Below are positions 5,872 to 61,272 of a stretch of DNA of 64,000 nt, piece after piece. The stretch lies in NCBI GenBank assembly GCA_035454885.1, contig DATIGE010000038.1, positions 55,239-119,238 on the forward strand, in the 5' to 3' direction. Both the position numbers and the translations under genes were made by a program. How positions within the stretch are numbered: the first letter of the stretch is position 1; each line of letters opens with the position of its first letter. The DNA comes from a bacterium. Lineage in GTDB: Bacteria; UBA10199; JACPAL01; GCA-016699445. The notes under the pieces were generated by a model, which saw only the letters and a list, made by a program, of their open reading frames with translations, was not told where the DNA came from and ran no database searches.

Positions 5872-8151
5872 ATGCAAAATCAATCACGCCGTAACTCCAT
5901 TTTTTTCGCGCTGACCGCGCTGGCTCTTCCGTTCACAGCCTTAACGGCCGGCACCGCTCACGCGGATTGCACGACGCCCGTCACGCACACGGTGACGAGC
6001 CTGGCCGATGACGGCTCGGTGGGCACCCTCCGGCAGCTCATCAACTCGGCGACGGTCGAAGACTGCGACACCATCGACATCCCGGCCGGGACGATCGTCT
6101 ATGACGGGACGGGTCCAGGGCAGATTCAGATTCGAAAGAACATTACCCTCCACGGCGCCGGCGCCGGGACGACCATCATCGACGCCAACGGTCCCAATAC
6201 GGCCGATCGCGCCTTCGAGATCGATCCGGATGACACCGGGGTCGGCGTGACGATGGAAGGGGTTACGGTTCAGAATGGACTCCCCGGCACGGACGGCGGC
6301 GGTATTATCCTCTCAAATAACGGATCCCTGCGACTGATCGACAGCGCGGTGATCGGGAATGAGGCGAGCGGCAATGGCGGTGGAATCCACTTGGATGATG
6401 ACGGAAGTTCATTGACCCTCGATAACTCGGTCATTTCGCACAACATCGCTTCGAGCGACGGTGGCGGCATTTATTTCGCGGGATCGGGCACCTCCGGCAT
6501 TATTGCCAATGGGTCCGTCATTTCCGATAACGAAGCCGGGAGCGAGGGTGGTGGAATCTATCACAGCGACGGCCAGTTGGAGGTCTTCAACAGCAGGATC
6601 ATCGACAACAAGTCGGGCAGTGACGGCGGCGGCATTTCCAATGAATTCGCCGCGATTACCCTGGTCGATTCTGAGATCAGTGGAAATGTGGCGGATTCCA
6701 GCGGCGGCGGTATCTACAACAATTACACGACCTTCATCGATAACTGTGTCATTAGCAATAATAAGACAACCAGCGACAACGACGGCGGCGGCATTTACAA
6801 CGACGACCTCTTATACATTGTCAAGAGCACGGTCTCAGGAAACCGCGCCGAGGGCGACGCCGGCGGGATCTATAACAGTGAAGGGATCACGATCGAAGAC
6901 ACAACGATTTCCGACAACATCGCGGACGTCGATGGAGACAACACGGGTGGCTGCGATGGCGGTTGCGGCGGAGGCATCTACAATAATTTCACCCTGACGC
7001 TCATTCGGAGCATCGTGAGCGGGAATACCTCCAACGGTGAAGCCGACGGCGGCGGGATCTACCAGAATGACTATGCGATCATCGTCGATTCTCTCATAGC
7101 CAACAACACGACAACGAACGGCGACGGCGGGGGCATCAGTGCCTGCAGCGAGCCGACATCAATCCGCAACACGACAATCTCCGGCAATCAGGCGAAGGGT
7201 GAGAGCAATGATGCTAGCGGTGAGGATGCCGAGGGCGGCGGCATATACAACTGCGAGCCGATGGATATCATCAACTCCACGATCGTGAACAATTCCGCCG
7301 ACGGCAGCGGCGGCGGTATCTATAATGACGAAGAGTTGACCCTCAATAACGTCACCATTGCGTTTAATACGGCGGACGCGAACGAGGGCGGCCTTTCCTT
7401 GGGCGACGGCGGCGGTGTTTACAACAACGCGCGGGTCGTCATGGTCAATAGCATCATCGCGGGAAATGCAGATGTCGGTCCGGGCCCCGGCGCCCCGGAT
7501 TGCTTCAATGATTTCAGCGGCGTTTCAAATGAAATGACTGCGGGTGGTCCCAACCTTGTCCAGGACACCTCCAACTGCGAAATCACGGGTTTCAAGGAAT
7601 TGGTTGTGGAGGCCGATCCTCTCTTTGACGCGGCGGGATTGGCCGACAACAGCGGCACCTCTGCGGGCGATCCTGACAGTCTTCTAGTCATCCAAACGGT
7701 CTCGCTCCAAAGCGGGAGCCCGGCCGTTGACGCCGGCGATACAGGGGTCTGTGCGACAACCGACGAGAGAGGTGTCAGCCGTCCCCAGGGAGCCGAATGT
7801 GACCTGGGTGCCGTGGAGGTTGAAGGTGGGGCGGGCCCTATCGACGATGACGACGATGACGACGACGGCGTCCTGGACGTCGACGACAACTGTCCCTCCG
7901 ATGCGAACGCCGACCAGGCCGATACTGACGGGGATGGCGTCGGCGACGCCTGCGACAACTGCGTGGACGATGACAACGCGGATCAGGCCGACGCGGACGG
8001 CGACGGCATCGGCGACGCCTGTGATTCAGGAGGTGGCGGCGGCGGATGCTCGCTCATGACGGCCGGTTCTTCCGGAGGCGGCCTTGTGGGTCTCCTCTCT
8101 CTCATGACCGTAGCGGGGATGTTTATGATCCGAAAGAAATCGTTCAAAAAA
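5872..8151 (+). CDS. Array unit A: secreted CSLREA-like/PbH1 beta-helix repeat protein with TSP3 Ca-binding repeats and full C-terminal GGCSL-TM-RKK sorting tag (no stop codon; continues in-frame into unit B)
   Basis: Signal peptide MQNQSRRNSIFFALTALALPFTALTAGTAHA. N-domain [30 protein letters not shown]. About 15 repeats of [LIV]x[DN]SxIxxNxAxxxGGGIYN. LADNSGTSAGDPDS...GSPAVDAGD...RPQGAECDLGAVE. DDDDDDDG plus DxDxDGxGDxCDNC (thrombospondin type 3) repeats. Tail GGGGGGCSLMTAGSSGGGLVGLLSLMTVAGMFMIRKKSFKK. Part of 1491-aa ORF 5872..10347. Confidence 0.8.
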
Positions 8152-10347
8152 ATGGCGCTCTTGGGCGGATTGGTCCTGCCCTTGATTCCGGCGGTGGCCC
8201 AGGCCGACTGCACGACCCCGGCGACCTTCACGGTCACCAACTGTGGCGACGACGGCTCGGTGGGGACACTCCGCCAGTTGATCCACAGCGCCTCGGTTCA
8301 GGATTGCGACACGATCCAGATCCCGGCCTGTACGATCGTGCTCGACACGGCAGGGTCGACGTTCTTTGCCGAGACGGACGCGAACGCGGACCTGGATGTC
8401 GACAAGAGCATCACGATTCGGGGGGCAGGTCCCGGTAGCACGGTCATCGATGCCGACGGCGCTGTCACAGGCGCCCGCGTCTTTGAAATCGATCCGGACG
8501 ATACCGGCGTTGGCGTTACGTTCCAAGGCCTGACGATCACCGGCGGACAGCCGTCGTCCGGTGAGGGGGGCGGCATTCTGGTCAGCAATCACGGCGTGCT
8601 TACGGTGCTCGATAGCGCCGTTGACGGGAACGACTCGGATACGGTTGCCAGCTCCGCGGGGGGCGGTATCGCCCTGCCGGATGACGGTTCCCTGATTCTG
8701 ACCAACAGTTCGGTCTCCAACAACAAGTCGGGTGATAACGGCGGTGGCCTCTGGTTCTCGTGCGGCGACGCCACCTCGGGAATTATCTCCAACAGCGAAA
8801 TCGACGGAAATACGGCGGTCAGCAACGGCGGTGGCGGCGTCTACATCGACTGCGGAACATTGGAGGTGATCAACAGCCGGATCACGAACAATGTGTCGGA
8901 CGGAAACTATGGCGGCGGTCTTTGGAACGAATACGCTTCCGTGTATGTCCTCAATTCCGACTTTATCGGTAACCGTTCCGAAGGAAGCCAAGGCGGTGGC
9001 ATTGAAAACGACTACACCATCCTGATCGACAATTGCTTGATCCAAGACAACGTGGCGACGAGCTCCTCCGGTTATGGCGGGGGAGTCGCAAACGAGGACG
9101 GCGGGATCATGACCATCATGAACTCGACCATCGACGGTAATCGGGCCGACGACGACGGCGGCGGAATTTACAATGATTATTACGCCGTCAATATCATCAA
9201 TAGCACGATTTCCAACAATGTCGCCGATGCCGACGATGATGGATCCGGCAATGGCGGCGGCATCAGCAACGACGATTGCTATCACCTCTATGTGACCAAC
9301 AGCTTGATCATCAATAACCTGTCCAAAGGTGATATCGGGGGCGGCATTTATCAAGACGGATACGCCATCATCGATAACAGCACCATCGCCGGCAACGTTG
9401 CGGCAAACAATCACGGCGGCGGCATCTATACGGATTGCGAGCCCACGGTGATCCGTAACAGCACGATCTCGGGGAATGCGGCCCTCGGTGACGACGGTTC
9501 TGATGACAGCCAGGGCGGCGGTATTTGGAATACGTACCCCCTGCTCCTCACGAACACCACGATCGCGAACAACCGCGCCGACGGTCATGGCGGCGGAATC
9601 TACTCCGACGATGAAGGTACGAGCCTCAACAATGTCACGATGACCGGCAACGTCGCCGATGCCAATGAAGGTGGCCTCAGTGGCGGCGACGGCGGAGGCA
9701 TTTACAACATTGACCGCGTGGCGGTCACCAACAGCATCCTCGCGGGAAATCTCGACGCCAGCCCCGGCCATGAAGCCCCGGACTGCTACAACAACTTTAC
9801 CATTGACGGAGACAGTATCGAGATCCTTGGCCCCAACCTCATTCAAGACACATCCGGATGCGAACTTCAGGGCCAATTGAGTCTCCTCATAGAAGCGGAT
9901 CCCCTGTTCGCTCCCGCCGGGCTGGCCGACAACGGCGGTTCCGATCAGGGGGACGACCCCAAGGAGCCCGCCAAGACCATCGGTCTCCAAGCCGGGAGCC
10001 CGGCGATCAATGCGGGCGATAATGGGTCCTGCGAACCGACGGATCAGAACGGCGTTGCACGGCCCCAGGGTGACAATTGTGATCTGGGCGCAGTCGAAGT
10101 CTCGGCGGCGGTTGGCCCCGTCGACGACGAGGATGACGACGACGACGGCGTTCTCGACGTGGATGACAACTGCCCCGCTGACGCGAACGCCGACCAGGCC
10201 GATGCGGACGGTGACGGTGTCGGCGACGCCTGCGACAACTGCGTGGACGATGACAACGCCGACCAGGCGGATGCGGATGCCGATGGCATCGGTGACGCCT
10301 GCGATACGGACGGCGGCGGTAGCGGTGGTTGTTCTTTGATTCGATAA
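8152..10347 (+). CDS. Array unit B: paralogous beta-helix repeat protein, TSP3 repeats, truncated tag ending GGCSLIR-stop
   Basis: In-frame ATG at 8152 begins signal peptide [18 protein letters not shown] followed by [29 protein letters not shown]. Same repeat architecture as unit A. Ends ...[17 protein letters not shown] with TAA at 10345-10347. Confidence 0.75.
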
Positions 10348-10415
10348 ATGACATTGGGGGGCGGCCTCGCGGGGCCGTCCCCCTCCATTTGCTCACAACC
10401 CGAGGAGCGACTCTT

Positions 10416-12809
10416 ATGACCAAACGTCTCGGCATACTCTCAATCTTTGCCTCCTTTATCATCACGGGACTCGCCCTGAGCTCTCCAGCTACGGCAGCCA
10501 CCTGGACCGTGACCAACGCCGCGGATGACGGCTCCTCGGGGACCCTCCGGACGATCATCGAAAATCCGGCCGTCATCGACGGCGACGTGATCGTCTTCGA
10601 TGCCAGCGTCACCACCGTCACCCTGACCGATGACCTCGACATCAACAAGAGCATCACGATCCGCGGAAACGGCGCGGGGACAACGATCATCGACGCCAAT
10701 GGCGCGGTCACGAACGACCGGGCCATCGACATCGACGCCGATGACCGGGGGGTGCATGTCGCCATCGAGGCCCTCACGGTCCAGGGGGGGCGTGAGGACT
10801 CGGGAACCGGCGGCGGCATTCGGATTCGCAACTCCGGCTCCCTCCTTCTGAGGGATTGCGAGGTCAAGGACAACCAGGTGACTGCGGGATCGACCGACGG
10901 CGGGGGTATTGCCATCGAATCCGACGGCGCCTTGGTCGTCGAAAACTCCACGATCTCGGACAACGCGGCGACGCAGGACGGCGGCGGCATTTATGCAAAC
11001 GCCGGCTTCATCGAAATCAAGAACAGCTCGATCGAGAACAATATCTCAAGCTTCGGCGCTTCCACCACGGACGGGGACGGCGGCGGCATCTACTCGGAAG
11101 ATGGAACCCTTAATATCATCGATACCGCCATCAAAGGAAACATCGCCGGCGACAACGACAGCACGTTCGACGATCCGGAGGATACGAGCAGCGAGGGCGG
11201 CGGCATCTACACGACGAGCGATCAATCGGCCACGATCACGGGGTCCGGCGCCTGCGAGATCAGCGGCAACAAGTCCGGTGGTGATGGCGGTGGAATTCAT
11301 AACGGCGAACTCATGTCGATCGATAACTGCCTCATCGACGATAACCATGCGATGAATGACCACGATGGCGGCGGCATCTACACGGAAGATCTTCTGACCC
11401 TGACGGACAGCACCGTCAGCAACAACGACGCCGAGGACAACGGGGGCGGCATCTACAACAGCGGATCACTCACAATCTTGAACAGCACGATCTCGGGCAA
11501 CACGGCCGACGTGGACGCGGACCCCGATGGAAGCCAGGGCGGAGGCATCTACACGGATAACTACTTCTTCCTCAGTGGCAGCGTCGTCCGCGGCAATATC
11601 TCCGTGAGCGGAGAAGGCGGCGGCATCTACTCGGACAGCTCCAACTACATCATCATCGAATCGAGCGTCATCGCCGACAACGAAGCCAGCGATCACGACG
11701 CCGGCGGGATCTATAACACCGGCGCCCCGATGATCATCCGCAACAGCACGATCTCCGGAAACCGGGCCCTCGGAGATGAGAACGGCGGCGGGACGGACAG
11801 TATCGGCGGCGGCATCGTCTCCTATTATCCCCTCATGATGTCGAACACGACCGTGGCCAACAACGAGGCCGACGGCGACGGCGGCGGCATCTATGCCTCC
11901 GGCGGCGACGATCACTTCTTCAACAACGTCACTATTTCGGGCAACGTCGCGGACCAAGAGGGCGGGGCCGATGGCGTCGGCGGCGGAATCTACAACGACG
12001 CCACCGGCGTCACGATTACCAATTCGATCCTCGCCGACAACTCCGATGACGCAACCGCGCCCGACTGCTTCAGCGATTTCTCGGCTGGTGCGGTTTTTAC
12101 GTCCCTCAGCGCCAATCTCATCGAAGTTACGACCGGATGCGACGTGACCGGTTTGGGACTCGTCACCGGCGACCCGGCCTTGGCCGCCCTGGCGGACAAT
12201 GGTGGCCCGGACGCCGGCGACCCCGACAGCCCCGAGCCGATCCTTACCAGCGCCATCGCGGCCGGCAGCGCGGCCTTGGACGCGGGCGACAGCGGGACCT
12301 GCGAGTTGGATGACGAGCGCGGTACGAGCCGGCCTCAAGGTCCGGCCTGCGATTTGGGGGCCTTTGAGCTCTTCACCGATACGGACGGCGACGGCATCGA
12401 GGACAACTCGGACAACTGCCCGTCGACCGCCAACGCCGGACAGGAAGACGGCGATGCCGACGGCGTCGGAGACGTCTGCGACAACTGCGCGGACGATGCC
12501 AACGCCGATCAGGCCGACACCGACGGCGACGGAACGGGAGACGCCTGCGAGGCGGCCGTGACGCCTGCCACGGATACCGACGGGGACGGCGTCCCGGATT
12601 CGACGGATAATTGCGATGCCGTCGCCAACGCGGACCAGGCAGATGCAGACGCTGACGGGATCGGCGACGCGTGTGACGCGGAAGACGGCGGGGGCGGTTG
12701 CAGCCTCAACGCCGGTTCCACCGCCGCGCGCGGAGCCACGGAGGGTCTTTCAATGTTCCTGATGTCGATCCTGGCCTTTGCCGGATTATGCCTGTTCCGG
12801 GGTAGGCGC
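10416..12809 (+). CDS. Array unit C: paralogous beta-helix repeat protein with TSP3 repeats and full GGCSL-TM-RGRR sorting tag (no stop; continues into unit D)
   Basis: GAGGAG RBS 9-14 nt upstream of ATG 10416. Signal peptide [41 protein letters not shown]-domain. GGGIY repeats. Four TSP3 repeats. Tail [41 protein letters not shown]. First unit of 3089-aa ORF 10329..19598. Confidence 0.8.
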
Positions 12810-15068
12810 GTGGCCCGCCGTGCCCTTCCGGCCGCGGCGATCCTGCTCCTGTTTTCCAGCACCGGCCGAGCGGCGGACATAACCGTCACGAGCCTCCTGG
12901 ACGACGGTACACCAGGGACACTCCGCAATGCGATCGCGACCGCGCTGGACGGGGACGTGATCATCGTTCCGGCTGGAACCATCGTACTCACCCTGGCGGG
13001 CGGCGCCTTTGACGCCGACACATTCCCGGATTTGGACATTACGAAAACAATCACCATCCAGGGCGCCGGGGCCGGAAGCACCTTCATCGACGGCAGCGGC
13101 GACCTGACCGCCGACCGCGTCTTTCATATCGATCCCAACGACACCGGGGCGGGGGCGACCCTCGAAGGCATGACCATCCAGGCCGGAAAGCCTTCGGCCA
13201 ACGGCGGCGGCGTCCTCATCGACAACCGGGGCTCCCTGACCCTTGTCGACAGCGTCGTGAGCGACAACGAGACCAATGGAGCGGACGGCGGCGGCATTTA
13301 TCTGAATGAGGGCGCCTTGGCCGTGATCCGCTCGACCGTCCGGACCAACGTCGCCGACGGCAACGGCGGAGGCATCTACAATACCAGCGGCTCCCTGATC
13401 ATCTCCGATGGGAGTTCCGTCACCGGCAACATCGCGACCTCCTCCGGGGGAGGCATCTATACCGATGCGGGAGGGCTCGACGTCATCAACAGCCAAATCA
13501 ACAACAACGATGCGGACAGCGACGGCGGCGGTATCTACAACGGCTACACGGCCGTGGTCCTGAACAATTCGGATTTGAGCGGCAATACGGCCGAGGGCAA
13601 CGGCGGCGGCGTTTACAATGGTTATACGCTGCTGATCTCTGCCTCCACGGTCTCCCACAATCAGGCCCTGAATGACAGTGACGGCGGCGCTGTCTTCAAT
13701 GACGTGGAGCTCTGGGTCGAAGACAGTACCCTTTCCGACAATGGAGCCGATGACGATGGCGGCGCCATCTACAACAACTCAACGGCCGTGATCGAGCGCA
13801 GCACGATCGCCGACAATGCCACCGATATCGACTCCGACGGCTCCGAGGGCAATGGCGGCGGGATCAACACCGACGGTGATCTCTACGTGCGGGAGAGCAG
13901 CATCCTGAGAAACGTGGCCGGCGGCGGCGGCGTCGGGGGCGGTATCTCCGGCACGGGCAGTGAGTACACGGTCATTGATCGGAGCACCATTGCCGACAAC
14001 GTGGCCGCGGATAACGACGGCGGAGGCATCTATTTCGACAATTCCCAGACCATCATCACGAACAGCACCATCTCCGGCAACATCGCCCTGGGGGATCAGC
14101 ACAATTCGGCCTCAACCGACAGCCAGGGCGGCGGCATTTGGCACGACGAAGCGCTGACCATGACCAATTGTACGGTCGTCGGGAACCGTGCCGACGGCGA
14201 CGGCGGTGGGATCTACGTGAATTCCGACAGCGATGCGAACATCATCCTGAGCAACGTGACGATCACGGGCAATACCGCCGATGCCAACGAAGGAGGCTTC
14301 TCGGGCGGCGAAGGCGGAGGCGTCTTCAACGATCAGGGTGTGCTGCTCACCAATTCCATCATCGCCGGGAACACGGACGCCAGCTTCATTTCCACTTCCC
14401 CCGATTGCTACAGCAACTTTACCGGGGATGGTAACAACTTCACCGTCGTCGGACCGAATATCATCCAAAATCTGGATGGTTGCGAGGTCGTGGGAGACGT
14501 CTCAAGTCTCCGGAGCGACGATCCGCTCTTCGACCCGGCCGGCCTGGCCGACAACGGTGGCCCGACCCAGACCTTGGCCCTTCAGGCCGCGAGCCCTGCC
14601 TTGGACGTGGGTGACAACGGCTCCTGCGAACTCACCGACCAGCGCGGCACTGCGCGGCCCCAAGGCGCGGCTTGCGACTTGGGCGCCTTCGAATTGGAGC
14701 CCGACGCCGATGGCGACGGGATTCCCAATACTTTGGACAACTGCCCCGACGTCTCCAATGCGGACCAAACCGACACGGACGGCGACGGCGCGGGTGACGC
14801 CTGCGACACGGACGACGACGGAGACGGCGTCGCCGACGGGGTCGACAACTGCCCTCTGGTCGCCAACGCGGACCAGGCCGATGAAGACGGCGACGGGATC
14901 GGCGCCGCCTGCGACACCGATGACACCGGCGGCGGCACGACCGGCGGCGGAGGAAACGGTGGGGGATGCGGCCTAGTCGCGAGTGGTGATGCGAAGCCTC
15001 ATGTCACCTTCTGGGCCGTGTTCGCCGGCCTTGCGGCCTTAGCGGCGCTTCGGATGAGGAAAATCGCG
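12810..15068 (+). CDS. Array unit D: paralogous beta-helix repeat protein with TSP3 repeats and full GGCGL-TM-RMRK tag (no stop; continues into unit E); start codon uncertain (GTG)
   Basis: Signal-peptide-like (M/V)[20 protein letters not shown] followed by [24 protein letters not shown]. No in-frame ATG at the boundary, so GTG 12810 is proposed. Tail [39 protein letters not shown]. Confidence 0.65.
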
Positions 15069-17411
15069 ATGAAAAAAGGCTTTTGGATTTTGGCGCTGGC
15101 GTCATTGTTGCTTCCGTCCACCGCCGGTGCGGTTACCTACAACGTCGATCCAAACTCGATGGGTGCGGCGCCGACCGTTCCGGACGGAGATCCGGGGTCC
15201 CTGCGTTTCTATCTCGAGAACATCGCGCTCGCGGACGGCGACACCGTCGTCATCCCGTCAGGCACGGTCAATCTCGACTCAACCATCGGGGAGATTGAAA
15301 TCAGGCGGAACGTAACGATCCAGGGCGCAGGCGCTTCCGACACCATCATCGACGGAAACGGGGCCGGAGGCGGCGACGATCGCGTCTTCAGCATCGACCC
15401 GGACGACACCGGCATCGCGGTGACCATCTCGGGGGTCACCATCACGGGCGGCGATGTGGGCGCCAGCGGCGGCGGCATTCTCCTGAGCTGGACAGCGAGT
15501 CTGACCCTCATTGATTCGGTGGTCGACGGAAACCACTGCACCACCAGCGGTGGCGGCATCGATGTGGAGGATCAGGGAACCCTCGTGCTCATCAACAGCA
15601 CGGTCTCCAACAACACCGCGGACAACGACGGCGGCGGTATCTGGAGCGGCGAGGGGTTCGTCCATGTCATCGGCAACAGCGTCATTGGGCCCAATAATCA
15701 GGCCCTCGGCAGCTACGGCGGCGGCATTTACACTAGCGGCGGCGTCCTTCAGATCGTGGACAGCCAGGTCACGGGCAACCGCGCGGACGATTATGGCGGC
15801 GGGCTCTATCTCGACAGCAACCAAGATACCTCGGCCTATCTCCTGAATTGCGAGATCACCAACAACGCGACCATCAACGATGACGGCGGGGGGATCTATA
15901 ACGACAGCACCCTCTTCATCGACAACTGCCGGATCGCCGGAAACACAGCAGACGGAGACGGCGGCGGCATCGACAATAGTGAACATCTCACCCTAATCAA
16001 CAGCACCATCTTCGGCAATCACGCCAACGAAAGCGCGGGTGGTATCTACAACGACGACGGTCTCACAATCAGCAACTCGACCATTTCCGAGAATATCGCC
16101 GACTTTAACGACGACGGTTCCGGCGGTTACGGCGGCGGAATCTACAATAACGACTATCTTTCACTCTCCGACAGCTTGGTCAGCAACAATATTTCAATCA
16201 GCAACAACGGCGGCGGTATCTATTTCAACGATTACGCCGTTCTGGACGGAGTGGCCGTCACGGGCAACATCGCCCAAGACGACGACGGAGGCGGCCTTTA
16301 TGTCGACGGGGACCCGGTTGTCCTACGGAACTGCACCATTTCCGGAAACGCCGCCCGCAACAACAGCGACGGGGGTGGACTTTATACGACCTATGCGATG
16401 GATATCTCCAACACGACCATCGCCAACAATACGGCAGACGGCAACGGCGGCGGACTTTACAACGATTCCGGCGGTGACGGCATCCTTCTCAACAACGTGA
16501 CCATTACGGGTAACGAATCGGACGCGGATGCGGCCGGCGGTGGTGACGGCGGCGGATTCTATGACGACAACTCGGACGCCGTCATGATCAACACGATCAT
16601 CGCGGGCAATACGAGCCCCAACCTGGGGGATGACTGCATCAGCGATTCGACCGCCGGCGCGAGTACGTTGACCTCGGGCGGTCCCAACTTCGTCGGTGTC
16701 GTCGATACCGACTGCGACATTGAGGGCGACGATACGGCCGTCCTGACCGGAGACCCCGGCTTCGCCGCGGCCGGCCTGGCCGACAACAACGGTCCCTTGG
16801 TCGGAGACCCCGAGGCCCCGGTCCGGTTGCAGACGGTTGCCCTGGCCCCGGCCAGTGCCGCGGCCGAAGCGGGCGACAATGCAAGTTGCGCCTTGACCGA
16901 CGAGCGCGGCGTGACCCGGCCCCAGGGCGCCGATTGTGACCTGGGAGCGTTTGAACTGGTCGTGGATACCGACGGCGACGGGGTAAGCGACGACGTCGAC
17001 AACTGCCCCGCTGCATCCAACGCCGATCAGGCGGACGGTGATGCCGACGGTGTGGGCGACGTCTGTGACAACTGTCCGGCGGACGCCAACGCCGACCAGG
17101 CGGACGCGGACGGCGACGGGACGGGCGACGTCTGCGAGGCGCCTCCCGCGGTCTGCGGCAATGGAGACGTGGAGACCGGTGAAGGATGCGACGACGGCGA
17201 TACGGACGCGGGAGACGGTTGCAGCGACACCTGCAGCGTGGAAGCCGGTTTCACCTGTTCCGGGGAGCCCTCCGTCTGCACCGAAACGGCCGGGGACGGC
17301 GGAGGCTGCTCCCTGACGGACGGGGGCACATCGGCGGCTGCGACCGGCCCCTTGATGGCGATTTTCGCAGGTTTAGGGGTCCTGTTTCTCCGTCGCATGG
17401 GGAAAAAAACA
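15069..17411 (+). CDS. Array unit E: paralogous beta-helix repeat protein with TSP3 repeats, Myxococcus-type Cys-rich repeat and full GGCSL-TM-RRMGKK tag (no stop; continues into unit F)
   Basis: GAGGA RBS 8-12 nt upstream of ATG 15069. Signal peptide [39 protein letters not shown] repeats. TSP3 repeats. [35 protein letters not shown] (Myxo_disulf_rpt-like). Tail [39 protein letters not shown]. Confidence 0.75.
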
Positions 17412-19598
17412 ATGAAAAAGGCTCTGTTGGGCATGGGATTTCTGGCCTTGATGCTTCCGGCGGGCACGGTGGGTGCGGCGACCTTTACCGTGACGAAGAT
17501 CACGGACGACGCCCCGGATGGCAACTGCGACGCCGATTGCTCCCTGCGCGAGGCCGTTATTGCGGCCAATGCAAGCGTCGGAGTTGATGACGAAATCGTG
17601 ATTCCGGCCGGAATCTATCAGTTGACCATTGCCGGCGCGGGCGAGGACCTTGCCGCGACGGGCGATCTTGACATTACGGACAATGTGATCATCACCGGAT
17701 CCGGCTCTCTGACGACCGTCATTGAAGGCAATGGTGCCGCCACTGGAGATCGGGTCTTTCATATCGATGCCGGCGCGAGTCCCGGCGTTGCCGCGAGCGT
17801 CGTGATGACCGGCGTCACCATTCAAGGAGGCAATGTCAGTGGGAGCGGGGGTGGAATAAACATCGACAATCGCGGTTTCTTGAGGATCGTAGACAGCCTC
17901 GTCTTTGGAAATGACGCTACAGGCGATGGCGGCGGTATTCACTTGGACGATGACGGTTCGGGCCTAGTCGTGGAAAACTGTACCCTTTCCAATAATATCT
18001 CGGAGGACGATGGCGGAGCCATCAGCAACGACGACGGCTCCCTTCTCGTCAAGAACAGCACGATTGCTGAAAACAAGGCCGGCGATGACGGCAGCGGAAA
18101 CGGCGGCGGCATCTACAACAACGAGGACGGGGCCGAGATCATTGACACCCGGGTCGTTGACAACGAGACTGGAAGTTCGAGCGGCGACGGCGGCGGCATC
18201 ATGAATGACTACGGGGCGATGACCATCACCGGCAGCGGCAACTGCGAAATCAGCGGAAACCGCACCCTTGCCGGCGAGGGTGGGGGAGTCGACAACGAAT
18301 ACACCATGCTGATCGACAACTGCCTGATCGCCGAAAACCAGGCCCTGGACGACAACGACGGCGGCGGTGTCTACAACGACGATGAGATGGTGATCCTGAA
18401 CAGCACGATCAGCGGGAACCGCTCCGAAGACAGCGGCGGGGGCGTCTATAACTACTACCACATCACCATCGACAACAGCACGATCGCCGACAACATCGGA
18501 GACACCGACGAGGATGGAGGCGGCGGCGGCGAAGGCGGCGGCGGGATCCACTTCGACGACTGGAGCACGGTCAGTAACTCCATCATTTCCGGAAACACAC
18601 ATCTGACCGGAGAGGGCGGCGGTATCGACGCCTATTACTACTTCGTCCTCGATAACTGCCTCATTACCGGCAACACCGCGGCGGACAATGACGGCGGCGG
18701 GATTGCGACCGATTACCCCGGCGTCATCCGGAACACTCTGATCAGCGACAATCGTGCCCTTGGGGATCAGAATAATTCGGCCACGGACGACAGCAATGGC
18801 GGCGGCATTGCGACAGACTACCCGCTCCAGATCATCAACACGACCATTGTCAACAACCAGGCGGATGGCCATGGCGGCGGAATTTGGAGTGATGATAAGC
18901 TGGACTTGAACAACGTGACGATCGCCTTCAACACGTCGGACGCGAATGAGGGAGGTTTTACGGGCGGCGACGGCGGCGGAATTTACAACGATGATGACAT
19001 GGTATTCAGCAATACCCTCATTGCCGGCAATACCGACGCGAGCCCCGGCGCCGAGGCCCCGGATTGCCTCAACGACTTCACGGGTGCCGGGAACAGCATG
19101 GCTTCGAGCGGGCCCAACATAGTCCAAGACCCGTCTGGTTGTGAGATCACCGGTGATCCGACGGGCGTCCTGAATGTGGACCCCCTCTTTGATCTGGCGG
19201 GTCTGGCGGACAACGGCGGTCGGTTCGCCGGCGACGAGCCGACCTCGGTGGTCCAAAGCCTCTCCCTGCAGGCCGGGAGCCCCGCGATTGACGCCGGTAA
19301 CAACGCCACCTGCGACCCGACCGACCAGGTCGGTACCGATCGTCCCGTCGGCGACGCCTGTGACCTGGGCGCCTTGGAGGTTACAACCCCCGCGGCCCCC
19401 CCGGTTCCGCCGGTCGTGCCTGCTGTTTGTGGAAACGGCGACGTGGAGACCGGTGAGGGCTGCGATGATGGCGACACCACTGCGGGCGACGGTTGCAGCG
19501 CTACCTGTGTGGTCGAAGATGGCTTTACCTGCACGGGTGAACCGTCGGTCTGTACCGAGGAGTCGGGAGGCAGCGGCGGTTGCAGCTTGATTAGATAA
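17412..19598 (+). CDS. Array unit F: paralogous beta-helix repeat protein with canonical CSLREA motif, Myxococcus-type Cys-rich repeat, no TSP3 repeats, truncated tag GGCSLIR-stop
   Basis: ATG 17412. Signal peptide [23 protein letters not shown]-domain ...[31 protein letters not shown] repeats. Ends ...[56 protein letters not shown] with TAA 19596-19598. Confidence 0.75.
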
Positions 19599-19604
19599 TA
19601 CGAA

Positions 19605-19676
19605 GGGCGAACACGAGGTTCGCCCCGACACTATCTCGAAGGCGGCCCTCGAAAGAGGGTCGCCTTTTTTGTTTTG
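19605..19676 (+). terminator. Tandem hairpins / rho-independent terminator after beta-helix array
   Basis: gggcgaacacgaggttcgccc hairpin, then ggcggccctc-gaaa-gagggtcgcc stem followed by TTTTTTGTTTT. Confidence 0.6.
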
Positions 19677-19678
19677 CC

Positions 19679-20986
19679 ATGCTACCCCCCGAATTCATGA
19701 TGTCTTACCTTCAAAAACAGGACCCCGACATCCACGCCGCCATCCACGGCGAGACGGAGCGCCAGGAATTCACCCTGGAAATGATCGCGTCCGAGAACTT
19801 CGTCTCGCGGGCCGTTTTGGAGGCGGCCGGGAGCGTGATGACGAACAAATACGCCGAGGGCTACCCCGGTAAGCGCTATTACGGCGGCTGCGAGTTCGTG
19901 GACCGGGCGGAGGACCTGGCGCGGGACCGGGTCAAGAGGCTCTTTGGCGCCGAATACGCCAACGTCCAGCCGCACTCCGGCTCCCAGGCCAACATGGGCG
20001 TGTATTTCACGTTCCTCAAGCCAGGAGATAAGGTCATGGGGATGAACCTGTCCCATGGCGGCCACCTGACGCACGGATCACCCGTCAATTTTTCCGGTCA
20101 ACTTTATAATTTTGCCGCCTACGGGGTGGACCCCAAGACGGGGCGGATCGACTACGACCGGTGCGCGGATCAGGCCAAGAAGGAACGTCCCAAGATGATC
20201 ACGGTGGGAGCCTCGGCCTATTCACGCAACATCGACTACAAGAAGTTCCGGGAGATCGCGGATTCCGTCGGGGCCTTTCTCTTCGCCGACATCGCCCACC
20301 CGGCGGGACTGATCGCGAAGAAGCTCCACAACGACCCCGTGCCGCATTGCCATGTGGTGACCTCGACGACGCACAAGACCCTCCGGGGACCCCGCGGCGG
20401 CTTGATCCTGATCGGCAAGGACTACGAGAACCCCTTCGGCCTCGTCGCGCCCAAATCGGGGCGCGTGAAGAAGATGAGCGAACTGATCGACTCGATGATC
20501 ATCCCGGGCATCCAGGGCGGGCCGCTCATGCACATTATCGCCGCCAAGGCGGTGGCCTTTGAGGAGGCCCTGCAGCCGGCGTTCGAGGACTACGCCCGCC
20601 AGATCATCAAGAACGCGCAGGCCCTCGCCCAAACGCTGGTGGACCTGGGCTACAACCTGGTCTCCGGCGGGACGGACAATCACCTGATGCTGGTGGACTT
20701 GAGAAACAGGAAGGTCACCGGCAAGGACGCCCAAGAGGCCCTCGAAGAGGCCGGGATCACGGTCAACAAGAACGCGGTCCCCTTCGACGACCAGAGTCCT
20801 CTCATCACCAGCGGCATCCGGATCGGCACCGCGGCCCTCACGACGCGGGGTATGAAGGAACCGGAGATGAAGACGATCGGGGGTTGGATCCATACGGTCC
20901 TGTCTGACCTCAAGAATGAAAAGGCGAAGCGCGAGGTGAGGGAGAGTATCCGCGCGCTCTGCAAGAAATTCCCCCTGTATTTGTGA
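19679..20986 (+). CDS. glyA: Serine hydroxymethyltransferase
   Basis: 435 aa. ...[42 protein letters not shown]...[14 protein letters not shown]... PLP Lys motif. True start may be the second or third Met (MSYLQ...) at ~19700. Confidence 0.9.
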
Positions 20987-56667: not shown

Positions 56668-57995
56668 TTTCCGATTCCCCCGGACACCCGTCTTTCCTTC
56701 AGGCCTTTCGCTTCTGGTTCAAGCTGGGCTGGATCAGTTTCGGCGGTCCCACGGGCCAGATCGCCATCATGCACCAGGAGCTCGTCGAGAAGCGCCGCTG
56801 GATCTCCGAGGAGCGGTTCCTCCACGCCCTCAATTACTGCATGTTGCTTCCCGGTCCCGAGGCCCAGCAGCTCGCCATCTACATCGGCTGGCTCCTGCAC
56901 CGGGCCTGGGGAGGGATCGTCGCGGGGGCGTTCTTCGTCATCCCGTCGATCTTCATCCTGACGTCTTTGAGCTGGGTCTACATGGCCTACGGGAAGATCC
57001 CGGTCATCGCATCGCTCTTCTATGGCCTCAAAGCGGCGGTGCTGGCGATCGTCGCGGCGGCGGTGATCCGGATCGGTCAAAAGGTCCTCAAGAACGGGGC
57101 GATGATCACGCTCGCCGCCGCGGCGTTCGTCGGGATCTTTTTCCTCAAAATTCCGTTCCCGTTGATCATTCTCGGGGCGGGGCTCATCGGCCTGGCGGGC
57201 GGGAGAATGGCGCCGAAGCATTTTCTCGTCGTGAAAGGGCACGGGGCGTCGTCTTCGTCCGGTTCCGGCGCGGTCCTCGACACGCACCATGAAACCCCGG
57301 ATCACGCCCATCCGACCCTCGTTCATACCCTCAAGGTCCTGGGTCTCTGTCTGCCGCTTTGGTTTCTCCCGCTGATCGCCCTGTCTCTGCGGCGCGGCAG
57401 CGAGGACGTCTTCTTCCGCATGGGCATCTTTTTCTCCAAGGCCGCCATGGTGACCTTCGGCGGCGCGTATGCGGTCCTGCCCTACGTCGCCCAGGAGTGC
57501 GTGAAGACCTACGGGTGGTTGACCGGCGCCCAGATGATGGACGGACTGGGGTTGGCCGAAACGACGCCGGGTCCTCTCATCATGGTGGTGAACTTCGTGG
57601 GCTTCGTCGGGGCCTGGCAACACGCGGGCGGCCTGCCGCCCTGGCTCGCGGGAGTCTTCGGAGGTCTCGTCGCCACGTACTTCACGTTCCTTCCGTGCTT
57701 TCTCTGGATCTTCCTGGGGGCGCCCTACGTCGAAAAATTGCGGGGCAACGTCCAACTCACGTCCGCCCTTTCGGCGATCACCGCCGCGGTGGTCGGCGTC
57801 GTCCTGAACCTCGCCGTGTTCTTCGGCGGCCACGTCCTGAAACCCGAGGGGCGGGGTTTTGATTTCGCAGCCCTGATGTTGGCCGCGATCGCCTTTTTTG
57901 GCATGCGGAAATGGAATTGGGACATCGTCTGGGTGGCCCTGGGAGCCGCCTTCGCGGGGCTCCTTCTTCACATTGGACATCTCATTCCGATTTGA
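56664..57995 (+). CDS. chrA: Chromate ion transporter (CHR family)
   Basis: GTG start overlapping osmC stop (GTGA). Two homologous halves, each with FGGP/FGGA motif (ISFGGPTGQIAIMH ; MVTFGGAYAVLPY). Confidence 0.85.
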   Translation: MISDSPGHPSFLQAFRFWFKLGWISFGGPTGQIAIMHQELVEKRRWISEERFLHALNYCMLLPGPEAQQLAIYIGWLLHRAWGGIVAGAFFVIPSIFILTSLSWVYMAYGKIPVIASLFYGLKAAVLAIVAAAVIRIGQKVLKNGAMITLAAAAFVGIFFLKIPFPLIILGAGLIGLAGGRMAPKHFLVVKGHGASSSSGSGAVLDTHHETPDHAHPTLVHTLKVLGLCLPLWFLPLIALSLRRGSEDVFFRMGIFFSKAAMVTFGGAYAVLPYVAQECVKTYGWLTGAQMMDGLGLAETTPGPLIMVVNFVGFVGAWQHAGGLPPWLAGVFGGLVATYFTFLPCFLWIFLGAPYVEKLRGNVQLTSALSAITAAVVGVVLNLAVFFGGHVLKPEGRGFDFAALMLAAIAFFGMRKWNWDIVWVALGAAFAGLLLHIGHLIPI

Positions 57996-58011
57996 ATAGA
58001 GAGGGATCAGT

Positions 58012-58058
58012 TCCGCCACCGAGCCGCGTTTCGGCTCGGTGGTTCTTTTGTTTTTTGC
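58012..58058 (+). terminator. Rho-independent terminator after chrA
   Basis: ccaccgagccg-cgttt-cggctcggtgg 11-bp stem followed by TTCTTTTGTTTTTTG. Confidence 0.7.
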
Positions 58059-58072
58059 GGGCAAAACATCTT

Positions 58073-60040
58073 ATGCCGTTGACCGACGAGCAGGCGAGAG
58101 AGATCGGCGAGGAGGAGTCCTCCCGCTGGAAAGAGACCCACACGGCGATCGTGGCGGAGCTTCGCCGCACGAGCGCGGATTACGAGGAGGACCGCAAGCT
58201 CGCGCGCGAACTGACCTCCCAAATCGTCGCGTCGACCCGGGACGAGGACAAGGCGGCGCTCGCTTCCGATGAAGCCGTGGCTCACGGACTGACGGCCCTC
58301 CGAAAGGACAAGTCGCAAGGCTTGGACAGCCTGGAGGAACAGCCGTATTTCGCGCGCGTCGTCACCGAGGAGCTCAATGAGGCCGGCGACTTGAAGGAAG
58401 TCGAATTCCGCCTCGGCACGGCCAGTTTTCCCGCCCAACGCATCATCGACTGGCGCAAGGCGCCCATCAGCAAGCTCTATTACGACTTCAAGGAAGGCGA
58501 CGAGTTCTCCGAGACGATCCAGGGCCGCGACCGCGAGGGGACGATCAAGCTCCGGCGGTCGTACCACGGCCGGCGCGACGTTCTGAACATCATCGAAACC
58601 CCGCGCGGTACCCTCGCCGTCCAGAACGGGAAATGGAGGGTGAAGGACGGGGGCGAGCCGCTCTCGCGGACCTCGGGCCACGACGGGCACCTGCCGCCGA
58701 TCCTGTCGCTCATCACCGCCGAGCAATTCGAGCTGATCACGAAGGATGCCAAGAATCCGATCGTCATCCAGGGCATCGCGGGCAGCGGCAAGACGACGGT
58801 CGCGCTGCACCGGCTGGCGTGGCTGTTGCATGAAGACAATTCGAACGCGAAGGCCGAGAAATGCCTCGTCGTGATGCAGAGCCCGGCCCTCAAGGCCTAC
58901 GTCGACACGACGCTCCCCGAGCTCAAGATCCACGGCGTCCCCATCCGCACTTTCCAACAGTGGGCCTCGAAGCTCGTGACCGAGCTGGCGGGCGCGCGCC
59001 CGACCGGGATTTTCCAAAAAACCCTCGAGATGGAGAGGTTCAAGTCGTCGATCGTCTGCCTCCAGCTCATGAACAAGTACGTTCAGTCCCACCCGGAACG
59101 GGATCTCTCGGATTGGGTGGCGGATCTCTTCCGGTTTTTCCAATTTCTCACCACGCAGGAAGTCTTCTGGCCTCAGTGGGAAGAGATCCGCAAACAGCTC
59201 AAGGAGCAGGTCGCGCGACGGCATTGCGAGGAGCAGGATGATGCGTTGATCCTTCATCTCATTTATCTGGAGCGCGGCTATTACCCGGTCCGGTCGGCGG
59301 GGAGCCTGGGCGTGTGCGATCACGTCGTCATCGACGAGGCGCAGGATTTCGGATTGATCGAGATCAAGGCGCTGCTCAACGCGGTCGACCAGAAGAGGAC
59401 GGTGACGATCGTGGGCGACCTGGCCCAGAAGATCGTCATGGGACGGAATTTCGACAGCTGGGAGACGGTCCTGAAAGACGCCGGCTTTGAGAACACCTCG
59501 CCGATCGAGCTCACCGTCTCTCACCGGACGACGCGCGAGATCCTGGACCTTGCGGGCAAGTTGCGGGGGGGGGACCAGCCGTTGCCGCCGGGCGCGCAAA
59601 AGTTAAGGAGCGGGCCGATTCCCTCCTTTTTCAAAACGGACACCGCGGCCGCCTTGCCGAATCTGGCCGCCAATTGGATCCGCGCCTGCCAAGGCGAGAA
59701 CGCCAACGCCCTGAGCGCGGTGATCTGCCGCCATCCGAAAGAGGCGCAGGCCCTGACCGAGGAACTCAGAAAATTGGGGCTCCCCTCCGTCCGTTGGGGG
59801 CACCGCGAACAGTTCGACTTCTCGCCCGGCGTGGTCATCACCAGCATCCATCAGGTGAAGGGCCTCGAGTTCCGCAACGTCCTGGTGCTGGAACCTTCCG
59901 AGGAAAACTACCCCCCGAACGAGGAAGGGCGGAATCTTCTTTACGTGGCGGCCACCCGGGCCGAGGTCCGGGTCGATTTTGCCGGCGCCAAGGCGCCCTC
60001 GCCGTTGCTGCCCCGCCTCCCCAAGGGCAAATGGGCATGA
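58073..60040 (+). CDS. UvrD/Rep-superfamily DNA helicase, HelD (helicase IV)-like
   Basis: Start MPLTDEQAREIGEEE. Walker A GIAGSGKTTVALHRLAWLL. VIDEAQDF. LTVSHRTT. VKGLEFRNVLV. Confidence 0.8.
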   Translation: MPLTDEQAREIGEEESSRWKETHTAIVAELRRTSADYEEDRKLARELTSQIVASTRDEDKAALASDEAVAHGLTALRKDKSQGLDSLEEQPYFARVVTEELNEAGDLKEVEFRLGTASFPAQRIIDWRKAPISKLYYDFKEGDEFSETIQGRDREGTIKLRRSYHGRRDVLNIIETPRGTLAVQNGKWRVKDGGEPLSRTSGHDGHLPPILSLITAEQFELITKDAKNPIVIQGIAGSGKTTVALHRLAWLLHEDNSNAKAEKCLVVMQSPALKAYVDTTLPELKIHGVPIRTFQQWASKLVTELAGARPTGIFQKTLEMERFKSSIVCLQLMNKYVQSHPERDLSDWVADLFRFFQFLTTQEVFWPQWEEIRKQLKEQVARRHCEEQDDALILHLIYLERGYYPVRSAGSLGVCDHVVIDEAQDFGLIEIKALLNAVDQKRTVTIVGDLAQKIVMGRNFDSWETVLKDAGFENTSPIELTVSHRTTREILDLAGKLRGGDQPLPPGAQKLRSGPIPSFFKTDTAAALPNLAANWIRACQGENANALSAVICRHPKEAQALTEELRKLGLPSVRWGHREQFDFSPGVVITSIHQVKGLEFRNVLVLEPSEENYPPNEEGRNLLYVAATRAEVRVDFAGAKAPSPLLPRLPKGKWA

Positions 60041-61272
60041 CGTTTCCTTGGTTCTTCTGGCTCTTCGCGGCCTGTTACACGGTCCATTTGGTCTGGGAGA
60101 CGGCGCTCACGCTCCTCAACAACGCCCACATCCGCAGGCACGCCGGCGAGATCCCCGAATACTTTCGGGGCAAGATCGAGCCGGATCGTTACCGGAAGGC
60201 CGTCGCCTACAACCTGGAGAAGGCGCGCTTCGGCCTCGCCGTGCGGGGTTATGACGTCGCCGTGACCTGGGCGATACTCCTGAGCGGCGTCCTGGAAAGG
60301 CTCGACGGCTGGGTCGGTCTCCGCGGGATTCCCCACTCGATCCTCTACTGCGGCGCCGTGGCCTTAAGCCTGACGGCCTTGCGCCTCCCGGTGTCGCTCT
60401 ATTCCCACTTCGTGTTGGAGGAGAAATACGGGTTCAACAAGATGACGGGGAAAACCTTCGTCCTGGACCTGCTGAAGGGAATCGCGCTCGGCGCGGCGCT
60501 GGGCGGGCCGATCCTGGCGCTCGTCTTCTGGCTCTACCAAAAGGCCGGCGGCCTCTGGTGGCTTTGGGCCTTCCTGGGCGTCTACGGCTTCGAGTTCGTC
60601 ATGGCGGCGGTCTATCCGACCCTCCTGGCCCCGATCTTCAACAAGTTCACCCCGCTGCCCGATGGCTCGCTGAAGGACGCGATCACGGCGCTGGCGAAAA
60701 AAATCCGCTTCAAGATGTCCGGCATTTTCACGATCGACGGCTCGCGCCGATCGGCGCATTCGAACGCCTACTTCGCCGGGATGGGCCGGATGCGGCGGAT
60801 CGTCCTTTTCGACACGCTCCAGAAGCAGCTGACCGAGCGGGAGATCATCGCCGTCCTGGGCCATGAGATGGGCCACAACAAGCTCCGGCACATCCAAAAG
60901 ATGCTGGTCATGGGTTTCGCGACCTCCCTCGCCGGTTTCTGGATCTTGTCGCTCTTGATCGGTTGGGAGCCTCTTTACGCCGCCTTCAACGCCGGCGCCC
61001 CGGCCCCGCACAAGGCGCTGGTGATCGTCTCGCTCTTCGGAAGCCACTTTACGTTCTTCCTCAAGATCCTGACCAACGCCCTCTCGCGGCGCTACGAGTA
61101 CGCCTCGGACCTCTTTTCGGTCAAGGTGGTGGGGGACCGCGAGGCGATGGCGTCGTCCCTGGTCGCGCTCTCGCGGGAGAATCTCTCGAACCTCACGCCG
61201 CATCCGCTCTTCAGCTTTTATCACTACACGCACCCGACGACGCTCGAGCGGGTCAGGGCGCTTCAGGCATGA
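60031..61272 (+). CDS. M48-family zinc metalloprotease (Ste24/CAAX-protease-1 homolog), multi-TM
   Basis: 413 aa. N-terminal TM helices. HEMGHNKLRH (HExxH) ... C-terminal ...THPTTLERV. 10-nt overlap with helicase. Confidence 0.85.
   Translation: MGMTFPWFFWLFAACYTVHLVWETALTLLNNAHIRRHAGEIPEYFRGKIEPDRYRKAVAYNLEKARFGLAVRGYDVAVTWAILLSGVLERLDGWVGLRGIPHSILYCGAVALSLTALRLPVSLYSHFVLEEKYGFNKMTGKTFVLDLLKGIALGAALGGPILALVFWLYQKAGGLWWLWAFLGVYGFEFVMAAVYPTLLAPIFNKFTPLPDGSLKDAITALAKKIRFKMSGIFTIDGSRRSAHSNAYFAGMGRMRRIVLFDTLQKQLTEREIIAVLGHEMGHNKLRHIQKMLVMGFATSLAGFWILSLLIGWEPLYAAFNAGAPAPHKALVIVSLFGSHFTFFLKILTNALSRRYEYASDLFSVKVVGDREAMASSLVALSRENLSNLTPHPLFSFYHYTHPTTLERVRALQA

Follow-up and report, generated by a model that had tools for sequence, protein, structure and literature searches.

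Two fused genes of a UBA10199 bacterium appear to encode polyproteins of Cys-tagged beta-helix proteins

A stretch of 64 kb of contig DATIGE010000038.1 (hereafter the window), which belongs to a bacterium of the GTDB lineage UBA10199, contains at positions 5872-19598 of the forward strand about 13.7 kb of DNA encoding six homologous beta-helix units. The units are carried by two genes, and at each boundary inside a gene a Cys-type C-terminal sorting tag runs directly into the signal peptide of the following unit. It is probable that the products are Sec-exported polyproteins of two and four units that are cut into separate beta-helix surface proteins, each anchored through its cysteine. The repetition of signal peptide, passenger and Cys tag within one open reading frame (ORF), conserved among relatives and variable in number, appears to be a new architecture.

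Gene layout and domain composition

The ORF listing and translation place two ORFs in the locus, 5872–10347 and 10329–19598. The likely start of gene 2 is the ATG at 10416, which has a GAGGAG ribosome-binding site (RBS) upstream and agrees with the NCBI record. None of the four internal boundaries (A–B, C–D, D–E and E–F) contains a stop codon. The original prediction of six separate proteins had to be abandoned, since there are two ORFs without a stop at these boundaries and NCBI records proteins of 1491 and 3060 aa, both under the product name 'choice-of-anchor Q domain-containing protein'. The prediction of six paralogous units within the 13.7 kb was correct: units A and B belong to gene 1 and units C to F to gene 2, each comprises 728–798 aa, and they share 46–59% protein identity and 60–85% DNA identity with one another. 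The features of the locus are listed below, with a slash at the predicted cleavage sites.

5872..10347, + strand: gene 1, two-unit polyprotein (units A, B), 1491 aa, HSA59372.1, single ORF without internal stop
5872..5964, + strand: signal peptide of unit A (…AGTAHA/DCTTP), from sequence and hydropathy
5965..8055, + strand: mature unit A, with N-cap, beta-helix, choice-of-anchor Q cap, poly-Asp and thrombospondin type 3 (TSP3) repeats, Gly run and GGCSL
8056..8205, + strand: A–B junction hairpin, 50 aa, with spacer, transmembrane (TM) helix, basic loop RKKSFKK, hydrophobic (h-) region and AQA/D
8206..10338, + strand: mature unit B, GGCSL at its end
10339..10347, + strand: terminal tail Ile-Arg and TAA (end of GGCSLIR) of gene 1, without TM helix or basic cluster
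10356..10384, + strand: GC-rich intergenic stem-loop between the genes, 12 bp, no U-tract, z = -2.9
10416..19598, + strand: gene 2, four-unit polyprotein (units C–F), 3060 aa, HSA59373.1, single ORF
10497..12707, + strand: mature unit C, with Beta_helix, three TSP3 repeats and GGCSL
12708..12872, + strand: C–D junction hairpin, 55 aa, with TM helix, loop RGRRVARR (no Met), h-region and GRA/A
12873..14975, + strand: mature unit D (the modelled unit), GGGCGL at its end
14976..15131, + strand: D–E junction hairpin, 52 aa, cleavage site before V (AGA/V)
15132..17315, + strand: mature unit E, with TSP3, Myxococcus Cys-rich repeat and GGCSL
17316..17477, + strand: E–F junction hairpin, 54 aa, cleavage site before A (VGA/A)
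17478..19589, + strand: mature unit F, with CSLREA N-cap, beta-helix, Cys-rich repeat, no TSP3, and GGCSL
19590..19598, + strand: terminal tail Ile-Arg and TAA of gene 2
19638..19677, + strand: intrinsic terminator closing the locus, 13-bp stem and T-run

All six units are genuine beta-helix proteins of the choice-of-anchor Q, PMP-repeat type. In hidden Markov model (HMM) scans each of them matched the choice-of-anchor Q model NF041518 (47–82 bits, cutoff 25), each also exceeded the cutoff of Chlam_PMP (PF02415), and Beta_helix (PF13229) was matched by units C and E. Mature unit D was modelled with AlphaFold2 from an alignment of 12 rows, and the model reached a predicted local distance difference test score (pLDDT) of 80 and a predicted template modelling score of 0.77; its residues 1–550 form a regular right-handed parallel beta-helix with three strands per coil and roughly 18 coils. 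The best PDB matches of unit D in a Foldseek comparison are beta-helix proteins: lyases of pectate and alginate, AlgE4, tailspikes of phages and, as the best local match, Rhombotarget A. The beta-helix fold proposed in the original prediction was thus borne out, and the two checks run against it, by HMM and by predicted structure, both came out in its favour.

The remaining domains are distributed less evenly than had been proposed. TSP3 repeats, expected in every unit, were found in A–E and not in F: TSP_3 (PF02412) scored 61.0 bits in C, 56.8 in D and 23.9 in E, the latter just under the cutoff of 25, the repeats of A and B were seen through partial matches to MtsC, and the HMM scan found none in unit F. 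The CSLREA model (TIGR04214), likewise expected throughout, was matched by unit F alone (30.9 bits, cutoff 25), and the other five units have a degenerate G(T/S)LR motif without a match. The Myxococcus Cys-rich repeat was confirmed exactly where it had been placed, with myxo_disulf_rpt (TIGR02232) scores of 42.0 bits in unit E and 46.8 in unit F (cutoff 20.8) and no match in the other four. HMM scans found no autotransporter beta-barrel domain in any unit; the units end in the Cys tag.

After the signal peptide, units A and B start with D-C-T-T-P (5965-5979 and 8206-8220), and another Cys is located in the N-cap (…DCDTI…). Neither feature is present in units C–E. These Cys residues may form a disulfide specific to the A/B subfamily.

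Anatomy of the internal junctions

All junctions follow the same order. First comes a Gly-run with an invariant Cys (GGC[SG]L), which a spacer of 8–15 residues, either polar or of Gly-Ser type, separates from a hydrophobic helix about 20 residues long. A loop rich in K/R, with 3–6 charges, connects this helix to another hydrophobic stretch (12–16 residues), and the junction closes with an AxA-type site in front of the conserved mature N-terminus of the next unit. From CSL to that N-terminus, the 11 junctions that were measured span 49–55 aa. The cleavage sites predicted in the window are AQA/D, GRA/A, AGA/V and VGA/A, and in 20 of 20 junctions of the window and related loci Ala is found at position -1 and A, G, V or S at -3 before the conserved mature N-terminus. 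In its second half the junction has the features of a Sec signal peptide and is similar to the genuine signal peptides with which units A and C begin. As judged by hydropathy and motifs, the geometry of the junction is that of a helical hairpin consistent with the positive-inside rule.

A tripartite C-terminal tag (Cys motif, hydrophobic helix, basic cluster) had been assigned to each unit. The complete tag exists in units A, C, D and E, where it is internal in all four cases and followed by at least 700 residues; units B and F stop at GGCSLIR and TAA and have neither helix nor basic cluster. The junctions are open in the related loci as well: no stop codon occurs in the 20 internal junctions of the window and loci L001–L005, nor in six further junctions of locus L167. 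The A–B hairpin is kept in the homologs P0002 and P0003.

Conservation in related genomes

At least five relatives share the fused layout, and their genes comprise 1–4 units each. A syntenic locus from a JGI metagenome (L001) has the same 2+4 layout, with genes for CorA, proteins of 1497 and 3020 aa, and SHMT in this order, and its units are positional orthologs of the window units with 63–80% identity. The database representative of the gene 2 ortholog is P0241 (3019 aa), and full-length relatives of gene 1 (P0002, P0003) are 69–70% identical to it. Locus L002 contains at least three polyprotein genes in a row, two complete 2-unit genes and a partial one. L003 and L005 belong to one metagenome-assembled genome (MAG), DASUFF01, and carry a partial gene with a 2-unit gene, and 1-, 3- and 4-unit genes. 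L004, on a 2.4-Mb contig of the CBDCFN01 MAG, has a single 4-unit gene, and L167 has 4+4 units adjoining SHMT-NrdR. L001, L003 and L167 retain the gene order of the window, in which the polyprotein genes lie between RpiB/CorA and SHMT-NrdR. The comparison of loci, suggested along with the original prediction, thus revealed a variable number of units (2+4, 4+4, 1+3+4, 2+2 and 4). In L167, a HepT/MNT-type toxin–antitoxin pair (18723-19699, - strand) separates the polyprotein genes from SHMT; the window has no such insertion.

The EttA proteins of the window contig and the L001 contig are 93% identical, compared with 63–80% for the orthologous units. This indicates that the units evolve faster, which is no demonstration of positive selection. 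Among named EttA sequences, the closest (78–82% identity) come from MAGs labelled 'Deltaproteobacteria bacterium'.

A junction profile of 134 positions was searched against 1.84 billion representative proteins and gave 1827 hits at E ≤ 1e-3. Among the matches listed, nearly all cover just the half comprising signal peptide and N-cap at a true N-terminus, and about ten match the whole profile internally. The latter include P0241, P0242, P0243, P0002 and P0005 from the window's clade and the distant 2-unit or fragmentary proteins P0247, P0248, P0249, P0251 and P0260, whose Cys tags include GGCALD, SGCELS, GGGCTIS and DCGS. Where the C-terminus of these distant proteins is intact, it consists of a full tag. 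A further 3-unit example is P0014. The fused junction of tag and signal peptide is thus rare but recurrent among Cys-tagged beta-helix proteins. A scan of genomes gave three close loci, the remaining matches being TSP3-only, and among the matches listed a scan of metagenomes gave TSP3-level or distant ones only. Many of the 'hairpins' from a generic scan were discarded as artefacts that arise in antisense frames of GC-rich DNA.

Three other long proteins, P0245 (3752 aa), P0267 (5181 aa) and P0344 (2777 aa), contain the module of CSLREA, beta-helix and cap 4–8 times per chain, without hairpins and with other domains between the modules. This indicates that tandem duplication of the CSLREA–beta-helix module is common even without cleavage signals. 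In an unrelated metagenome locus (L143), long ORFs starting from 4361 (+ strand) and 16852 (- strand) contain an internal 'DNLACFI' that is followed by a spacer and a TM helix, after which a KK loop leads to a segment resembling a signal peptide. The 'DNLACFI' motif may represent another fusion-forming tag family.

Short gene ends

The end peptide of the polyprotein genes was compared at 11 gene ends of the window and four related loci. Nine of them have CSLIR, and the other two have CSLIRE and CSLIPHP. Codon usage is free to change, with TGT/TGC for Cys, TCT/TCC/TCG/AGC/AGT for Ser, TTG/CTG/CTA for Leu, CGA/CGG/CGT/CGC/AGA for Arg and TAA/TAG for the stop, which indicates selection on the peptide and not on a DNA element. 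Within the roughly 1.4 Mb of loci examined, the CSL[IV]R-type ending is restricted to the polyprotein family. The selected short CSL[IV]R terminus appears to be new and specific to the window's clade.

Full and short ends coexist, with the common core C-S-L-[IV]. The L004 gene and gene 1 of L167 end in a full tag, and in L167 this gene (GGGCSLVSITSM… TM helix … RKQTSK, then stop) is adjacent to a gene 2 that ends with GGGCSLVR. In the window, the GGCSLIR stop of gene 1 is followed by the stem-loop, an RBS and gene 2, and that of gene 2 by the strong intrinsic terminator. Readthrough or frameshifting at the GGCSLIR stops was considered and rejected, as none of the three downstream frames encodes a TM helix.

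Proposed processing and alternative explanations

According to the proposed scheme, the chain would be threaded through Sec as a series of alternating stop-transfer and signal sequences. Each hairpin would reside in the inner membrane, with the TM helix of the tag oriented N-out and C-in, the basic loop in the cytoplasm and the h-region of the signal peptide oriented N-in and C-out. Signal peptidase I would cut after AxA and free the N-terminus of the next unit. By analogy with Cys-type sorting systems, an endopeptidase of the CPBP/Rce1-like myxosortase type may cut just past the Cys, which is probably lipidated, and the hairpin peptide of about 50 aa would be discarded. The units would become separately anchored surface proteins in fixed 1:1 ratios, in which Ca-binding TSP3 and/or Cys-rich repeats would form a stalk ending with the Gly-run and the invariant Cys. 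In the terminal units, GGCSLIR-COOH may be a minimal CAAX-like version of the tag signal. An alternation of stop-transfer helices with internal signals cleaved by signal peptidase is characteristic of flavivirus polyproteins and of the Bradyrhizobium FbcH cytochrome b/c1 precursor, which differ in that they join unlike proteins and have no C-terminal sorting tag.

Sorting signals such as LPXTG, PEP-CTERM, GlyGly-CTERM and MYXO-CTERM have been defined as terminal and as occurring once per protein, whereas here a Cys-type tag is found up to three times inside one chain. If the processing is as proposed, sorted surface proteins are made as true polyproteins, a strategy known from viruses and apparently undescribed for bacterial proteins of this type. 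Such a chain would be a natural substrate on which the cleavages by signal peptidase and by the sorting enzyme can both be read on one molecule, and the natural pair of full and truncated tags offers a way to find out if recognition depends on the TM helix. In annotation by gene callers and family models, such loci appear as single 'choice-of-anchor Q' proteins, and both the internal tags and the short ends are overlooked.

Several points weigh against the proposed processing. Signal peptides and TM segments were called by inspection of hydropathy and motifs and not by a trained predictor, and an AlphaFold model of a 138-aa junction (8 sequences) had a pLDDT of 50 and was uninformative. None of the curated models of C-terminal sorting signals was matched at its cutoff by the isolated tags or by the whole units. 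Neither the 64 kb of the window nor the 10-kb flanks of loci L001–L005 and L165–L168 revealed a gene for a CPBP, rhomboid or exosortase protein. Besides, the short GGCSLIR end has no TM helix, the part that contacts the intramembrane protease according to Haft, and therefore the processing of this end is speculative.

As for the terminal units, it is quite possible that GGCSL[IV]R is not a sorting signal and that the last unit is soluble, secreted or non-covalently attached, with its Cys used otherwise, for example in an intermolecular disulfide to lipid-anchored sister units. Such a role would agree with ends that lack both TM helix and basic cluster, with the TM–TM contacts assumed in the myxosortase model, and with a Cys that is fifth from the end where the CAAX Cys is fourth. 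However, the whole pentapeptide is under purifying selection over the 11 gene ends, a CSLVR end exists in L167, and the C-S-L core is common to short ends and full tags, as would be expected if both contain one recognition element. More doubtful is the suggestion, drawn from this analysis, that GGCSL[IV]R-COOH could be a genuine minimal periplasmic CAAX-like sorting signal, with a lipidated Cys and trimming by the CPBP-type enzyme that would cut the full tags. If true, one lineage would span the range from MYXO-CTERM-type signals to eukaryotic CAAX processing, and the polyprotein would serve specifically to produce paralogous beta-helix proteins with lipid anchors in stoichiometric sets.

It is unlikely that the hairpins serve as permanent uncut anchors of a giant inner-membrane protein with two or four periplasmic beta-helix domains. 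The continuous ORFs, a hairpin topology that fits the positive-inside rule and the failure to find a sorting protease nearby would all be compatible with this arrangement. But the canonical AxA stands at 20 of 20 junctions, before a mature N-terminus like those after true N-terminal signal peptides, and the invariant GGC[SAG][LM], 8–15 residues before the helix, is conserved in the manner of sorting signals recognised by enzymes. Moreover, single-unit and terminal forms carry the GGC motif, yet have no anchor.

Independent translation of six genes, with internal initiation at each signal peptide, is very improbable. An ATG is present in the loop at three of the four window junctions and a GTG is available for unit D, but in about half of the 20 junctions, including those of P0002 (…RKKSFKKAAVLTG…), P0004 and P0005, the loop contains no Met, so the units joined there cannot be separate cistrons. 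As no stop follows any upstream unit, ribosomes must read through, whereas genes that are truly separate show a stop, a spacer of 25–80 nt and a clear RBS, and NCBI records two proteins.

That the locus is an artefact of assembly or sequencing, with a collapsed or duplicated repeat or with frameshifts erasing stops, has a negligible probability even for a repetitive locus in a MAG, given the divergence of the units in DNA and protein and the fused layout in independent JGI, Logan, ENA and NCBI assemblies, including the 2.4-Mb contig. Recent duplication or assembly collapse was rejected for the same degree of DNA divergence, and the positional orthologs in the syntenic metagenome locus answered the concern raised with the original prediction that the array might be spurious.

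Comparison with known sorting systems

The units are not demonstrable members of the MYXO-CTERM, JDVT-CTERM, GlyGly-CTERM or CAAX groups. The best C-terminal models on isolated tags were MYXO-CTERM, with 18.5 and 17.3 bits (cutoff 20), and JDVT-CTERM, with 17.1 bits (cutoff 27). No match to the MYXO-CTERM model TIGR03901.2 was obtained with whole units, and GlyGly-CTERM (TIGR03501-type) was not matched by isolated tags even at E ≤ 10. The likeness to MYXO-CTERM pointed out earlier is therefore reasonable, although below the cutoff, and the likeness to GlyGly-CTERM was not upheld. The wider proposal of a secreted family of beta-helix surface proteins with a Cys-containing sorting tag is supported by the HMM matches, the tag scores and the structural model.

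The window tags resemble MYXO-CTERM in having a Gly-preceded invariant Cys, a TM helix and a basic cluster, and align to positions 1–31 of the 34 positions of TIGR03901.2; the cargo of MYXO-CTERM likewise includes proteins with TSP3 and Cys-rich repeats (MtsC, TraA). They differ in having a single Cys and no GCGC motif and in scoring below the cutoff. In addition, four of the six window tags are internal, two of the six lack the TM and basic parts, and no myxosortase was found in the window or flanks; the MYXO-CTERM system with its myxosortases (MrtX, MrtC, MrtP) belongs to Myxococcota and Bradymonadales. MYXO-CTERM and JDVT-CTERM are two of the four Cys-type tripartite signals assigned by Haft to CPBP/Rce1-like 'myxosortases' (10.1101/2023.06.07.544157). 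Both are cut by CPBP myxosortases distal to the presumably lipidated Cys (10.1101/2023.06.07.544157; PMC11980579), and the cleavage of the TraA MYXO-CTERM by MrtX is Cys-dependent (PMC11980579). The working model for MYXO-CTERM comprises lipidation of the Cys, cleavage distal to it and type II secretion to the surface (PMC11980579).

An internal position of such a tag is not without precedent. MXAN_5598 has one atypical internal MYXO-CTERM (PMC11980579), and internal LPXTG and PGF-type signals are processed according to work cited in PMC11980579. MXAN_5598 consists of an adhesin, the tag and an outer membrane beta-barrel/OmpA part, and resembles the window proteins in that a mid-protein tag precedes a second exported part. 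It is, however, a single fusion of two unlike proteins, whereas the window proteins consist of homologous units with full signal peptides, up to four times per chain, in a layout that is conserved across genomes with a variable copy number and has short CSLIR tails at the gene ends. Apart from the remark on MXAN_5598, no description of a bacterial polyprotein containing signal peptides or sorting tags at internal positions was found in the full-text literature, of which the coverage was incomplete. A protein of 2684 aa from a Kofleriaceae MAG (L056, + strand, from 4325) contains an internal MYXO-CTERM (GGGCHVAS…RRRRR) followed by a signal peptide and an OmpA-like part. This fusion is of the MXAN_5598 / TraA-TraB-fusion type of PMC11980579.

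Similarity to the CAAX proteins of eukaryotes and archaea and to Rce1 (CPBP) lies in a C-terminal Cys followed by a few mostly aliphatic residues (C-S-L-I-R) and in the protease family that has been proposed for Cys-type bacterial signals. According to Haft, the CPBP family spans long (MYXO-CTERM) and short (CAAX) signals (10.1101/2023.06.07.544157). In the window proteins, four residues follow the Cys, and the variants CSLIRE, CSLIPHP and CSLVR occur; their compartment would be the periplasm, whereas CAAX proteins are cytosolic. JDVT-CTERM and its protease MrtJ offer a likeness as a single-Cys tripartite signal with weak tag matches (17.1 bits), but the window tags lack the near-invariant DP motif and no adjacent CPBP protease was found, whereas MrtJ adjoins its JDVT-CTERM substrate in 16 of 17 cases.

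Two further systems share the beta-helix cargo. Rhombotarget A (PDB 9cdv/9cdu) gave a local match with unit D at probability 1.0, a root-mean-square deviation of 5.5 Å and 18% identity, but it is a single-unit protein with a GlyGly-CTERM tag and a rhomboid protease (rhombosortase). The chlamydial Pmps have GGAI/FxxN-type PMP repeats and a beta-helix passenger, but are autotransporters with a C-terminal beta-barrel, whereas the window units have no barrel and use a Cys tag.

Search for the sorting enzyme and genomic context

In the present study, no ORF with multiple TM segments and CPBP motifs was found in the window or in L001–L005. Pfam scans of about 40 ORFs of the window, which make up most of its called genes, and of selected ORFs of the related loci revealed no CPBP, rhomboid, exosortase, Lgt, LspA, LepB or type II secretion system domains, and no protease gene is adjacent to P0248, P0251, P0242, P0249 or P0014. 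Housekeeping myxosortases, as noted by Haft, are likewise not encoded beside their many substrates (10.1101/2023.06.07.544157).

The window also encodes a metalloprotease of the Ste24/ZMPSTE24 type (59674-61272, + strand; Peptidase_M48_N 178 bits and Peptidase_M48 123 bits). Its domains begin near 60127, and the start of the ORF is probably further downstream than listed, because the listed start overlaps a UvrD-like gene (57911-60040). This gene is intriguing in view of the CAAX-like CSLIR ends, but it is located about 40 kb from the polyprotein locus, and nothing links the two. In L004, an HtpX-like M48 peptidase (1288-2244, - strand; 124 bits) is encoded about 7 kb upstream of the 4-unit gene.

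The rest of the window is ordinary chromosome and contains genes for AcrB/OEP/TetR, RpiB, CorA, SHMT, NrdR, MutY, RecQ and two-component systems. A probable beta-helix protein (DUF1565) encoded at 63535-63999 (+ strand) runs off the window. It has a lipoprotein-type signal (…ALASC), which suggests that it would be anchored N-terminally and not by a C-terminal tag.

The stem-loop between the 2-unit and 4-unit genes of the window has a counterpart in L001 (about 14507-14537, z = -5.7), which occupies the same intergenic position with another sequence and again without a U-tract; the stems are 12–13 bp long. The element could act as an attenuator or as an mRNA-stability element setting the ratio of the two polyproteins.

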